From Candidatus Bathyarchaeota archaeon (GTDB lineage Archaea > Thermoproteota > Bathyarchaeia > Bathyarchaeales > Bathycorpusculaceae), in contig OY970176.1 of assembly GCA_963707955.1 (NCBI GenBank), positions 1,440,001 through 1,504,000 of the forward strand: a DNA stretch of 64,000 bases. Reading direction: 5' to 3'. Of the stretch, positions 10,369 through 41,499 are shown piece by piece (within the stretch, counting starts at the first letter, position 1; each line of letters begins with the position of its first letter). The translations under genes were made by a program, and so were the position numbers. The notes under the pieces are model-generated. The model did no database searches. It saw nothing but the letters and a program-made list of their open reading frames with translations, and was not told where the DNA came from.

Positions 10369-10500
10369 TGGCGCCGGGGAAGGGACTCGAACCCCTGCGA
10401 GCCCGAAGGCCCACTGGCTCACTTGTCATCATCTATCTGGACCCTTTTTTCCTTGCGAATGATCTCGAGGCCAGCGCGATAACCGCTCCGCCACCCCGGC
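10369..10500 (-). tRNA. tRNA-Ser(CGA) with a 44-nt intron at canonical position 37/38 (intron 10420-10463); CCA encoded
   Basis: Reverse complement folds as a tRNA: acceptor GCCGGGG/CCCCGGC, anticodon stem CTGGC/GCCAG, loop CT-CGA-G|A, long variable arm, GTTCGAGTC T-loop, G73; bulge-helix-bulge at the exon-intron junctions. Confidence 0.95.
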
Positions 10501-37670: not shown

Positions 37671-38099
37671 ATGGAAATCCGTAGGCTAACCGCAGTCGAC
37701 TACAAGGAAATCGTGAAGTTTTGGTCCATTACTCAACTGCCTCATAAACCAAGGGGCCGTGACAGCGAGCAAGCAATAGCGTTGGAAATGAAAGCTAATC
37801 CAGACTTTTTCTTGGGAGCCTTCGAGCATGGGCGTCTTGTTGGAACAGTAGTCATAAGTTGTGACCTGAGAAAGGGTTGGATAAACCGTTTAGCTGTGCA
37901 TCCAGCCTTTAGAACCCGCGGCATAGCGAGGGCCCTAATCGATGAAAGCGAGAGAATCCTTAGAAAACGCGGTGTGAGACTCTTCTGTGTTTTGATTGAA
38001 GGTTCGAATGTTGCGTCGAAAAACCTCTTCAGAAAGTGCGGCTATGAGGAGCATCATGATATACTGTATTTTGCTATACTTTTTAGTAAAATAAACTAG
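37671..38099 (+). CDS. GNAT acetyltransferase whose native C-terminus is displaced by an insertion
   Basis: GWINRLAVHP...RGIA; after DILYF the tail is element-derived, and the in-frame native-like tail SKRDSGDV* lies at 40827-40853. Confidence 0.85.
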   Translation: MEIRRLTAVDYKEIVKFWSITQLPHKPRGRDSEQAIALEMKANPDFFLGAFEHGRLVGTVVISCDLRKGWINRLAVHPAFRTRGIARALIDESERILRKRGVRLFCVLIEGSNVASKNLFRKCGYEEHHDILYFAILFSKIN

Positions 38100-38117
38100 A
38101 TGAGTTTAAGTATGCCT

Positions 38118-38153
38118 GTCTCAATTCCCATTGCTTGGGATTTTTCCATGCAC
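38118..38153 (-). CRISPR. Solitary CRISPR-like repeat (single unit, no array)
   Basis: 36 nt GTGCATGGAAAAATCCCAAGCAATGGGAATTGAGAC with TCCCA/TGGGA hairpin and ATTGAGAC 3' handle; cas6 lies 1 kb away on the same strand. Confidence 0.6.
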
Positions 38154-38382
38154 CTAACAGTACGGGAGGAGTAACGTGGCTAGGCGTAGTATTCCGCGTA
38201 TCGCGCCAGCATATACATTACTTAATCCCATTCGCCGTCTCTATTCGCCATCCAGCTTCAAATTCTTTCTGGAAGCCCAGTGCAACCACCTCTCTTGAAC
38301 ACAAAAGCCAATCCTATTTGACACACAGAATAGGAAACGCTTATACAGTAGTACGTCAACTCTGTTGTACGAGGCAACTCGC

Positions 38383-38610
38383 ATGGAGAACGTAGTGAAA
38401 GTAACGCGAAGAGGACAAACCACAATCCCTGTGGAATTCAGGCAGAAGTTTGGAATCAAGGAAGGAGATCAACTGATGGTTGAAGCCACTGAGAAAGGAT
38501 TGCTCTTTAGGCCGATCCCCAGACTTGAAGACATGGCAGGCATAGACGCAAAATACGGCAAAGTGGAGGAAGTCAAGAAGCACATAGACAAACTCCGCGA
38601 GGAATACTAG
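38383..38610 (+). CDS. vapB: AbrB/MazE-type antitoxin (VapB)
   Basis: VKVTRRGQTTIPVEFRQKFGIKEGD. Confidence 0.88.
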   Translation: MENVVKVTRRGQTTIPVEFRQKFGIKEGDQLMVEATEKGLLFRPIPRLEDMAGIDAKYGKVEEVKKHIDKLREEY

Positions 38611-38612
38611 GC

Positions 38613-39011
38613 TTGAAAGAAGTCTTGGACACAAGATTCTTCACTGAACACTTCTACTCCGATCAGGTGCAGACAAAACAGATAACAGCGAGAAGACTGA
38701 GAGAACTAACAAGCAGAAACGAAGGAATATTGCCCACCATCGTCATCTCTGAAGTCATCCAAATAACCTGCGAAAAAAGAGGAAAAGAACTAGCAGAGAC
38801 TCGCTATCATGCGCTCATGGAAAGCGGACTCCAAATCCAAAGCTTGACCCCAACCATCGCCAAACAGGCCGGCCTCATCAAATGCCAACACAAAAACATC
38901 CCTATGGGCGACTGCATAATAGCCGCAACCGCCATAACTAGCCAAGCACGCATACTCTCTGACGACCCACACTACGACACAATAAAAGAAACCAAACGCA
39001 CATGGATCTAA
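38613..39011 (+). CDS. vapC: PIN-domain toxin (VapC)
   Basis: VLDT, ISE, GDCIIAATA, SDDPHY; directly follows the antitoxin. Confidence 0.88.
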   Translation: MKEVLDTRFFTEHFYSDQVQTKQITARRLRELTSRNEGILPTIVISEVIQITCEKRGKELAETRYHALMESGLQIQSLTPTIAKQAGLIKCQHKNIPMGDCIIAATAITSQARILSDDPHYDTIKETKRTWI

Positions 39012-39198
39012 GAAAGGAATAGACAGACAAGACATGCACGTCTTGAAAAGCCGAGAAAACCGGCACGCTTCATCTACTTATGCATCAGGCTTGCCCCGAA
39101 ATTATGGGGTAAATCTGAAAAGCTAGTGTCAGATGAGTTTTTGGCACCGAAACGATCAGTGCCGCAGATTCATGTCACACTCAATAAAGCATTGGAGT

Positions 39199-39996
39199 TC
39201 AAGATTTCACGTTCAGCTTGATCACACCGAATCCTCCTGTTCTGTTGCCGCCTACGCTCGCATACTCAGCGAAATTTGCCAGCATACACGTTATTTTGTT
39301 CCATTCGCTTTCCTGATCCTTTAGTTCATAAGTAGCCCAGCCAACGAAACCTGTTGCCTTCTTCCTCCTCATGGTTGCCAACCTCGTCCACAACTCATAC
39401 TCGCTCACACCCACGTTCTTGTCCAGCCACTCCCTATACGCCACGTACTCCTCTTTCCCAAACCGTCTCCCATCACTGAACAAGTTCCAACAACGCATCA
39501 AACCCGAAAAAACCTTTACAGCATCAGGAAACATCCAATGATAACCACTTCCCAAACTGGCAAAATACGTAGGCGACCTAAACGAAAGCCTAAACGCATC
39601 CGCTACTCCAGCTTCCTTCTCCAACTCCTCATAACTCTTACAGTTCACGCTCAGCGAAGCGATACGAAAGACCGTATCAAAAACCATCAAGCTATTCTGC
39701 TTCTGAAAGAAACTAAGCAAGAACGTCGAATACTCGTCCTTCAAAAACCTGAAACCGACCCGACAAGGAAACAACGGATCCAGCACATAACCACCCTCAG
39801 CGCGGCTCTTACTCCTAAACCGCAAAGGCGTCACGCTATAAGGCTTAGACACGTTCAACTAATGCAACAAACCAGACGCACCAGGATCAACCATCCTAAC
39901 AACATGCAACAACAAACCACGAGCCACATAACCCGTAAAAAACGGCAAAACCGTACTTTTCTCTGCATACATCTCCAAACCAATCTCAACAGGCAA
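39199..39996 (-). pseudogene. cas6: CRISPR-associated endoribonuclease Cas6 with in-frame TAG at 39859-39861
   Basis: MPVEIGLEM...GLLH*LNVSKPYSVTPL...FRSPT...GFVGW...FAEYASVGGNRTGGFG glycine-rich loop. Confidence 0.85.
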
Positions 39997-40230
39997 CTAC
40001 ATTCAACTCCCATATATGGGATTGCGATACACTGCTCTATACAAGAAAGGCGAAGTATCAACTTAAGACTTTTTTCATCTTCATTCTCTGCTGTGGTTTA
40101 TCGCGACTATCCTTCAGCCCAGTTTTTCTGCCTAGGGGTCGAGCATTTGCGACTGCCGACAAAACTGCGCCCAATAGTACAAGCTAAACATCGAATGAAA
40201 CTCATGTAAAAAATGCAGAAGTGACATAAA

Positions 40231-40428
40231 TTGAAAAATAAATCAAAATTCCTGCGCCAAGCATTAATCGGTTTCATCTTGTGGACACTATTTCTTAGTC
40301 CATACATGCTTTTTGTCGCTCATGTAAACCTTGCGCAGTATCTATGGTGGCTATTGATGGAAGGCTTACTTGTACCTCCCATTTCTATTGTCGTTATTAA
40401 CGTTACGAATAGACTAACTAAACAATAG
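40231..40428 (+). CDS. Small two-TM membrane protein (element cargo)
   Basis: 65-aa ORF with two hydrophobic segments. Confidence 0.5.
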   Translation: MKNKSKFLRQALIGFILWTLFLSPYMLFVAHVNLAQYLWWLLMEGLLVPPISIVVINVTNRLTKQ

Positions 40429-40470
40429 TCACCTGCTTGTACGCGCTAGTAAAACTTAGGAGAAAACACA

Positions 40471-40698
40471 ATGACTTACAGGCAAAAAAGGCCAAGATGG
40501 TGCGAGCATCAAGACTGCATATGTCAAAGAAACATTTCTAACCAGATGTGTGGTGGTAGGCTTCCGAATCCTGTACTTCATGTGGACACCTTTAATTTTT
40601 ACCATTTATGCCTCAGAGTAGATGGTGAAGTATCTACTTTCGAGATAAATAGTACTGACTTAGACTGCTTCAGACAGATCTTTGATGCTTTAGATTAG
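40471..40698 (+). CDS. Small Cys/His-rich hypothetical protein (element cargo)
   Basis: AGGAGA RBS-like motif; RPRWCEHQDCIC...MCGGRL...HLC. Confidence 0.55.
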   Translation: MTYRQKRPRWCEHQDCICQRNISNQMCGGRLPNPVLHVDTFNFYHLCLRVDGEVSTFEINSTDLDCFRQIFDALD

Positions 40699-40923
40699 AA
40701 GGAAAACAAGTCTTTTAAGTCGATAGTCGCCCGCCCCTTCTCTTTTTCGGCATTTCTACCTTAGAAGCATGCGAAAGCTCTGCTTGTTTAGTTTGCTAAC
40801 CTGAAAAGATAGGCAAACTGTATTTCAGCAAGCGGGATAGCGGCGACGTCTGATCGTTTCTCACGAAAAAGCCAGATTGCCTTCCCGCGCATATGCCTGC
40901 GATGACTTCCAACAGTCTGTTCT

Positions 40924-41499
40924 CTAGAAGTCGTGCGGTTTCGCTAATACCTGTCTTATCTTTAAATCGAAGAATCTTGCAGCGTTTGCCGGGCGTATCC
41001 GAAGTGCGGTGTCGGCGCCTCGACCAGTTCCGCCGATAGCGATAATGTCCTCGTCGGTTGGAATCAAACCAGCATCTGCGGCCATCAAACTTATCTCGAC
41101 GCAGACTTTTGTTCCTTCACCCATGCGGCGGAGCACGTTTGCCATCAGCTCCAAGGGCTGGATTGTGCCGAAATCTTTGCGCACAGCTCTTTCAGCGCTG
41201 CTCAAGGCGTGAGTGCCGGCGAAGATCGTTGCTCCGTTTGCCAGGATTCTTGTCTCATACTCATCTTGCAGCTCACTCTTGCCGGGTTCTTTGAAACCGA
41301 AATAATGAGTGACGATGACAACGTTGCGGCCTTTGAACATCTCAGCTGCTTTTGCTCCCGTTTGACCGGTTGTTGAGGCAACCACGATGCCTTTTATGTC
41401 TTCCTTTTCCATGTATTTCTTCACGACTTCCAGAAGACTGTCAGTGTTTTGCTCGCCTGCTTTTGCGAAGTAGACAGTCTTTTCTTCAAAGAGACTCAT
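40924..41499 (-). CDS. Pyruvate kinase C-terminal-like alpha/beta domain protein
   Basis: YFAKAGEQNT, VVASTTGQTG, HALS, KVCVEI, GGTGRGADTA. Confidence 0.8.
   Translation of the reverse strand: MSLFEEKTVYFAKAGEQNTDSLLEVVKKYMEKEDIKGIVVASTTGQTGAKAAEMFKGRNVVIVTHYFGFKEPGKSELQDEYETRILANGATIFAGTHALSSAERAVRKDFGTIQPLELMANVLRRMGEGTKVCVEISLMAADAGLIPTDEDIIAIGGTGRGADTALRIRPANAARFFDLKIRQVLAKPHDF

Follow-up and report, generated by a model that had tools for sequence, protein, structure and literature searches.

A precisely bounded 2.75-kb insertion carrying a CRISPR repeat, vapBC and cas6 near the 3' end of a GNAT gene in a Candidatus Bathyarchaeota genome: a possible non-autonomous mobile cassette

We analysed a window of 64,000 nucleotides (bases 1,440,001-1,504,000) from the genome of an uncultivated sediment archaeon of Candidatus Bathyarchaeota; the genome is one contig of 2,346,764 bp with 47.9% GC. 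Near the 3' end of a GNAT acetyltransferase gene, the window holds a 2.75-kb interval that was confirmed as a precisely bounded insertion. The interval lies between two copies of a short direct repeat, ends in inverted tips and carries a solitary CRISPR repeat, the toxin-antitoxin (TA) genes vapBC, a cas6 gene and two small open reading frames (ORFs). The downstream gene of the locus gave a PK_C match in Pfam. The features are listed below by window position and strand, with the evidence for each in brackets.

37671-38071, plus strand: GNAT acetyltransferase gene, native codons 1-134 up to the insertion point (Pfam PF00583, 2.9e-16; ORF list; orthologue tails).
38063-38071, no strand: left copy of the direct repeat ACTGTATT(T), the target-site duplication (sequence; empty sites).
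38071-38118, plus strand: left end, made up of the 16-nt terminal inverted repeat TTGCTATACTTTTTAG (38071-38086) and a subterminal stretch with inverted similarity to the right end (control scoring; shuffles).
38119-38155, minus strand: solitary CRISPR repeat, reading ...GCATGGAAAAATCCCAAGCAATGGGAATTGAGAC on the minus strand, the strand of cas6 (match to repeats of relatives).
38365-38610, plus strand: vapB antitoxin gene, AbrB/MazE fold, with the ATG at 38386 as the likelier start (PF04014, 4.4e-10; omega 0.05-0.10).
38613-39011, plus strand: vapC, PIN-domain toxin gene, intact (PF01850, 3.7e-13; omega 0.13-0.22; 94% nt identity to locus L044).
39199-39996, minus strand: cas6, type I-D-like, 265 sense codons plus one in-frame TAG at 39859-39861 (codon 46) (PF10040, 5e-15; read-through translation).
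40024-40816, no strand: right arm, particular to the element, GC 37-40% against 47.9% in the genome (DNA searches; GC).
40231-40428, plus strand: 65-aa ORF, hydrophobic by eye, which may not be a gene (no homologue found).
40471-40698, plus strand: 75-aa gene of a conserved unnamed family, with invariant W10, C11, C16, C27, H37 and C47 (HMMER; alignment; fold model).
40801-40816, minus strand: right terminal inverted repeat, reverse complement TTGCCTATCTTTTCAG (control scoring).
40817-40825, no strand: right copy of the direct repeat ACTGTATT(T) (sequence; empty sites).
40826-40853, plus strand: orphaned 3' end of the GNAT gene, the remainder of ...F-SKRDSGDV and the stop (sequence; empty sites; orthologue tails).

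The insertion left the GNAT domain whole (ORF list and Pfam). The interrupted ORF continues to 38099, and its last 8 residues, SKRDSGDV, are exchanged for AILFSKIN. An earlier reading of this DNA, made without database searches (the sequence-only reading), had pointed to a repeat at 38063 and 40817. The sequence agrees, as ACTGTATTT is present twice, at 38063-38071 and 40817-40825. By itself, a 9-nt direct repeat is unremarkable, since 48 families of direct repeats of at least 9 nt lie within 3.1 kb. The boundaries were therefore set by empty sites in relatives, which were searched for with the segment 36303-42957 as the query against 41 genomes (40 relatives and the own genome). In two congeners the two flanks abut, with an overlap of 9 nt in G001 (95-96% identity) and of 7 nt in G007 (93-94% identity). 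Read letter by letter, these two genomes and a third congener, G005, have a single copy of the repeat and then directly ...CAGCAAGCGGGA... In addition, two contigs of run X5, a wetland metagenome from a separate study, omit 2754 bases, with 38062 joined to 40817 in one and 38064 to 40819 in the other. The empty site is thus present in three congeners and in two metagenomic contigs, and it proves the boundaries. The sequence-only reading had also held that removal of the interval gives ...HHDILYF-SKRDSGDV*, and that the idea should fall if orthologous GNATs lacked such a tail and relatives lacked the joined sequence. The joined site exists, and 9 of 9 orthologous GNAT ORFs that were extracted end in YF(S/C)KR(D/E)S.., which resembles the restored tail. 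The insertion postdates the split from the genomes that are 93-96% identical at the locus.

The study from which the genome probably came includes further samples, sequenced as runs X2 and X3, and contigs of these two runs span each of the occupied junctions with 0 differences. The insert is therefore real and not an assembly artefact. The occupied site was met only in the population sampled by this study, and in runs X4 and X5 cover was missing over 40157-40741. The comparison with the empty sites indicates a clean duplication of 8 or 9 bp with all target bases kept. A run of T at the left junction permits two readings, either an 8-bp duplication with TTGC...GCAA tips or a 9-bp duplication with TG...CA tips. 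The locus offers a base-exact recent insertion whose empty site is kept in sister genomes.

The ends are imperfect inverted repeats, as had been proposed. The left tip reads TTGC-TATACTTTTTAG and the right tip, in reverse complement, TTGCCTAT-CTTTTCAG; 14 positions are matched over 16-17 columns with 2 indels, and the tips adjoin the duplication directly. The anchored 16-nt tip score was equalled by 0 of 20,000 random genomic pairs at the same spacing. Next to the tips, a 33-nt subterminal inverted similarity (23/33) was as good or better in 11 of 3000 genomic controls, and a stretch within 38071-38118 matches 40764-40799 at 25 of 36 positions, with none of 300 shuffles as good. The sequence TTGCGATAC at 40021 was considered as a third copy of the end, one that lies internally and would have made the right arm a complete small element, and was rejected, as it was not among the 12 best internal matches.

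These ends bear on the idea that a linear fragment of a relative's CRISPR locus or of a mobile genetic element was captured by end joining at a staggered double-strand break, with the tips being coincidental. The element is a singleton without a family, and inside it the edge of a CRISPR locus is joined to AT-rich DNA unrelated to it, as such a capture would have it. Nevertheless, the 16-nt inverted tips lie exactly at the boundaries and are accompanied by the subterminal similarity, and a clean duplication without loss of target bases is typical of transposition. We consider the capture of a fragment quite improbable.

No transposase or recombinase family was found in the element, as judged by the ORF list and by Pfam and PHROGs searches of 9 and 6 selected ORFs of the locus. 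This agrees with the sequence-only reading, which saw no recombinase of the element's own. The families returned for the selected ORFs were GNAT, AbrB/MazE, PIN and Cas6. On balance, the element (38071/2-40816) is probably a non-autonomous mobile insertion cassette of the DDE type, which relied on a DDE-type transposase acting in trans and left an 8/9-bp duplication of its target. This enzyme would bind both 16-nt inverted tips. Staggered cuts of 8 or 9 bp would be made in the target ACTGTATT(T), close to the GNAT 3' end, the element would be joined there, and gap repair would produce the flanking duplication. One part of the passenger DNA would be the edge, on the array side, of a type I-D-like CRISPR-Cas locus, with the last repeat, vapBC and cas6; the other would be an AT-rich arm with a small gene of the 75-aa family. 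We favour the DDE reading because the inverted tips abut a clean 8/9-bp duplication in coding sequence, and because the target flanks are unlike the arms and no native arm-spacer-arm site was seen. By eye, the target flanks match the element arms at 5 of 16 and 6 of 16 positions. A search of the host genome for a site of the element's type, with two inverted repeats around a spacer, gave 42 loose matches, none of them convincing.

The sequence-only reading had named a tyrosine-recombinase element as the other possible origin. The evidence leans towards the DDE type, although no second copy, autonomous relative or circular junction was found that would decide between the two. In the recombinase alternative, an integrase-less integrative element, resembling a cis-mobilizable element (CIME), would owe its movement to a tyrosine or serine recombinase whose gene lies elsewhere, and ACTGTATT would be the attP/attB crossover core. 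We judge this unlikely. Its further proposal, equally unlikely in our view, is that the two 16-nt arms are binding sites and that the circular form reads arm-8 bp-arm. Placed head to tail, the ends do form two inverted 16-nt arms around an 8-nt spacer, which is the layout of a core site. The circular junction that the sequence-only reading had suggested looking for has no counterpart in contigs of four runs, which showed no back-joint of a circle, although contigs would miss rare forms. The host genome has 9 Phage_integrase matches above the cut-off, none linked to the element. It also has a second lone CRISPR-like repeat (C1 1427104-1427135), and about 100 nt from it lies a 201-aa ORF (C1 1427233-1427838) that resembles, by eye, the C-terminal part of a tyrosine recombinase. 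Against a recombinase, the similarity of the target flanks to the arms is no better than chance, no comparable site occurs in the genome by the search just described, and the insertion lies at the end of a protein-coding gene and not in a tRNA gene. A split integrase of the type of Sulfolobus spindle-shaped virus (SSV) is excluded, as just about 170 nt lie outside annotated features at both ends.

Several results weigh against a DDE-type cassette. First, a single insertion cannot tell a target duplication from a recombination core. Second, neither a second copy nor an autonomous relative of the element was found in its own genome. Among 332 genomes of the family, the end pattern gave 40 matches outside the own genome against about 20 for a reversed-pattern control, and none were paired on a contig. 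Eight of the 40 were inspected; none was similar past the 16-mer, and at least 3 were copies of one conserved stretch. Contigs of one genome per species gave 3 chance end matches, all bacterial, and metagenomes of the Joint Genome Institute (JGI) gave 0 end matches in two scans. The relatives with the same ends and an enzyme, for which the sequence-only reading had suggested a search, were thus found in none of these collections. Finally, no transposase of the host could be tied to the ends. The element tips (TTGC..., or TG...CA with a 9-bp duplication) are without the GG tips of IS6, all three DDE_Tnp_1 genes of the host are broken, and an IS1595-type transposase was absent from the host and above the cut-off in 1 of 60 relatives.

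The insertion sequences (IS) of the host were compared with the duplication length. An 8-bp duplication is ascribed to the IS6 and IS1595 families and one of about 10 bp to the IS4 family (PMC7986276, PMC8101967, PMC2266710). The host has four IS6-like (DDE_Tnp_IS240) genes, at 1716922-1718070, 2028367-2029272, 1267439-1268479 and 994938-995660, of which three are open and one is truncated; an IS1-like zinc finger is present. Given the three open genes, enzymes able to make 8-bp duplications are present in the host. The ends of resident IS6-like copies, roughly delimited for two of them against G001 and G007, were examined as a source of the element ends and rejected, as they have no clean inverted repeats matching TTGC...; this too counts against the DDE reading. 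TTGC-like matches near the IS6-like copies occur at the chance density of the genome. One of the IS6-like genes has a borderline SWIM-finger match of 19.5 bits (Pfam cut-off 19.6). The copies shared with G001 and G007 reach about 350 nt and about 600 nt past the ORF, so that the units exceed a classical IS6. IS1595/ISSod11, with a putative end consensus Gc-n-TATC, was dismissed as the mover, as no such transposase was found in the host. The host genome gave no TnpB-type match, and repeated genome segments considered as IS candidates are paralogous genes.

The sequence-only reading had listed as cargo a solitary CRISPR repeat, vapBC, cas6 and two small ORFs. All are present, with the reservation that cas6 has the in-frame TAG at 39859-39861. 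The CRISPR repeat lies 48 nt inside the left tip. It is similar to repeats in relatives, including a three-repeat array beside cas6 in locus L055, and it also matches a repeat-40 nt-repeat unit in run X5. It is probably an array remnant, as relatives carry a repeat at the corresponding place, where their contig ends. A search of 37900-41000 against Rfam gave no match at E<=1, and the hairpin of the repeat was no more stable than shuffles. The vapB gene is directly upstream of vapC with a 2-nt gap, both genes are intact, and the four acidic PIN residues of vapC are present by eye. From these sequences, vapBC is predicted to be a type II TA pair with an AbrB/MazE-fold antitoxin and a PIN toxin.

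The nonsense codon of cas6 is covered by contigs of X2 and X3 without differences. The equivalent of codon 46 is Glu in the intact cas6 ORFs of G003 and G020 and AGG in G029. Since omega of cas6 was about 0.1 in six comparisons, the stop appears recent. The cas6 of G029 (L025 = G029:C64, about 2030-2040) has an apparent 1-nt deletion near codon 30 relative to the gene of the window; it may be broken too, or this may be an error of the metagenome-assembled genome (MAG).

No CRISPR array was found in the host genome, and two periodic k-mer regions that were considered as arrays are protein-coding repeats. Likewise, no homologues of the G003 genes cas5, cas7, cas10d and cas4 were found in it. Given the lack of an array and of effector homologues and the nonsense codon in cas6, the cas6 gene and the repeat are best seen as relics in this host, and the label "defence-carrying" that the sequence-only reading had attached to the element is too strong. 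Its suggestion that the TA pair retains the element is plausible. The vapBC genes are intact with omega of 0.05-0.22, and the pair may stabilise the insert by post-segregational killing. Control of the TA cargo by a CreTA-like or mini-array mechanism was considered and rejected. The sequence beside the repeat is complementary to the upstream regions of vapB and cas6 at 18 of 36 positions, a value reached by 133 and 186 of 300 shuffles and hence at chance level, and no Cascade genes lie in the genome.

The CRISPR-derived cargo raises the idea that a Cas1-family integrase, either a casposase or Cas1-Cas2 acting off-target, made the integration. Four Cas1 matches lie in the host, at 2258379-2259366, 862528-863163, 227778-228074 and 2026633-2027105, the repeat is close to the left tip, and copies of a Cas1-flank segment, 74-89% identical, are scattered in this array-less genome. 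However, every Cas1 gene of the host is broken, two by internal stops and two as fragments. An 8-9 bp duplication does not fit either process, since casposons duplicate about 14-15 bp and a whole repeat is duplicated when a spacer is integrated. The target is unlike the repeat apart from a match of 10 of 15 positions by eye. ORF lists, which were read without a family search, showed no polymerase-sized large ORF within 5 kb of the Cas1 relics. We regard integration by a Cas1 enzyme as very unlikely. A casposon carries a Cas1 casposase and a family B polymerase inside, and both are absent from the element. A Tn7-like CRISPR-associated transposon has TnsB, TnsC and TniQ with a Cascade or Cas12k module, whereas the element has no transposition genes and just a broken cas6 and one repeat. 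Both classes were rejected for the element.

The Cas1 relics have some features of their own. A segment of about 130 nt, which begins about 80 nt downstream of one Cas1 fragment (2026864 onward), resembles by eye the C-terminal part of Cas1. It has three further copies at 85-89% and one at 74% nt identity, and one copy directly follows a second Cas1 relic. The coordinates 2284299-2284406, 2295577-2295699 and 206311-206427 were listed with the relics and the repeated segment. The relics could be a decayed multi-copy Cas1-bearing element or reflect repeated loss of adaptation modules.

Relatives of the cargo point to its source. In G003, a cas6 that is 87% identical at the nt level heads an operon with a DEAD/Cas3 C-terminal helicase, a 789-aa HD protein and Csc2, which continues with an unassigned 224-aa protein and then Cas4, Cas1 and Csa1. 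The gene order cas3'-cas10d(HD)-csc2-csc1 of this operon is what we take to be type I-D. All 16 loci found for cas6 relatives sit in records titled Bathyarchaeia or Bathyarchaeota. The arrangement of cas6 and vapBC also occurs in L044 (vapC 94% at the nt level), L045 and L047 (= G029:C64). In G029, which belongs to another family of the same order, a repeat lies at the contig start, about 260 nt ahead of the vapBC homology. Elsewhere in Bathyarchaeia, including this other family, the repeat-vapBC-cas6 block shows vapBC identities of 87-94%. The block moves horizontally, as its vapBC part in G029 is 87% identical to that of the window while the neighbouring aminotransferase is 68% identical. 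On these identities, the repeat-vapBC-cas6 block spreads among Bathyarchaeia across a family boundary. In locus L055 (8770-9140, JBBFKZ010000005.1), cas6 is followed downstream by a gene that is cas3 by eye, and immediately behind its Walker-A region comes the three-repeat mini-array, which apparently truncates it. The site resembles a scar that a deletion or rearrangement would leave in a type I-D-like locus.

The homology of the cas6 module in other loci ends at 40023, and a search of 120 family genomes gave no DNA relative for the 793 bp of the right arm beyond it. A weak 57-nt match to the right end in G142 was discarded, as it shrinks to one exact 16-nt word that is expected by chance. 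The two small ORFs of the sequence-only reading fared differently. The 65-aa ORF had no homologue in Pfam, PHROGs or a further homologue search, whereas the 75-aa ORF turned out to be a real, conserved gene. Word-index search, peptide scan and Atlas were all blank for it, and HMMER against 1.84 billion representatives gave 104 relatives at E<=1e-3, 18 of them at E<=1e-10. The family motif is RPxWCPHxDC...CGGxLPxPxxH...NTHRxC, and none of the 10 clusters looked up bears a functional name. The predicted fold has four strands and a helix at a predicted local distance difference test (pLDDT) score of 94.9, and Foldseek found no match to it in the PDB and BFVD at E<=0.001. Four genomic loci of the family were found (L085 3068-3361, L086, L087 and L088), all on contigs of bacterial MAGs; the family is sporadic, on short contigs binned to unrelated bacterial phyla. 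One of the four loci has a phage-like context, as the relative in L085 neighbours a phage-type HNH endonuclease, a DNA methyltransferase and a PHROG family. The gene adds a conserved, unnamed family with a confidently predicted fold.

The element is probably of a known kind, a mobile insertion cassette or miniature inverted-repeat transposable element (MITE) with passengers. A precedent is MIC231 of Bacillus cereus, mobilised by IS231, alongside MITEs (PMC2266710); IS6-family MITEs are mentioned in PMC7986276. The present element shares with them inverted IS-like ends, a target duplication, the lack of a transposase, passengers and dependence on an enzyme in trans. It differs in being single-copy without a cognate IS, in its Bathyarchaeia host and in having a CRISPR-locus fragment and a TA pair as passengers. 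For IS6, Varani et al. 2021 (PMC7986276) describe an 8-bp duplication, GG tips, cTGTt/caaa motifs and movement by cointegrates. The element and its host resemble this in the 8-bp target duplication, the short inverted ends and the three open IS6-like genes, whereas the element ends begin with TTGC and no IS copies flank it.

Shmakov et al. 2023 (PMC10120712) describe type I-D loci in which TA cargo beside mini-arrays forms a hot spot of shuffling, possibly under CreTA-like control. The present block is alike in having a standalone repeat by a TA pair and type I-D-like cas genes in a variable region. Unlike these hot spots and CreTA, as they are portrayed there, it is carried by a transposon-like cassette, its host genome lacks Cascade, and the complementarity does not exceed chance. 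Camara-Wilpert et al. 2023 (PMC10651486) describe solitary repeat units, carried by mobile elements, that act as RNA anti-CRISPRs (Racr). The element is similar to that description in carrying one CRISPR repeat mimic on a mobile element, and dissimilar in that its host has no CRISPR-Cas to inhibit and the repeat lies beside its own broken cas6.

A more functional view, which we hold to be distinctly unlikely, is that the cassette is a working vehicle spreading a CRISPR-interfering or addiction module between Bathyarchaeia, either as an RNA anti-CRISPR or Cas6 decoy or as a Cascade-dependent TA safeguard. Cas6 would there act together with the solitary repeat of the element, in a reading direction that leads out past the left end, and beside vapBC in type I-D hosts, which is just as doubtful. 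It is equally improbable that the present copy was recently disabled, its host having lost CRISPR-Cas. If the view were true, the 25/36 match of the right end to the stretch that follows the repeat would serve both guide-target pairing and transposase binding.

New here are the host group, the cargo of a CRISPR fragment with a TA pair, the absence of a known partner IS and the conserved 75-aa family. Very little is documented on transposable elements in Bathyarchaeia, and a literature search on Bathyarchaeia, CRISPR and transposons listed no paper on such a cassette, as judged by title and abstract. If the element is a DDE-type cassette, transposon ends can take up and carry fragments of CRISPR-Cas loci (last repeat, TA pair and cas6), and this would be a tangible way in which TA cargo is shuffled beside type I-D loci. 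The element ends provide a handle for tracing the cognate transposase.

Two further observations were made in the host genome. A tRNA at 10372-10500 of the window (minus strand) scored 44.3 bits in Rfam over 129 nt and was missed by ARAGORN; it probably carries an intron. In addition, a 6-kb tandem duplication lies at C1 2096997-2108976, with 99.95% identity between its copies.

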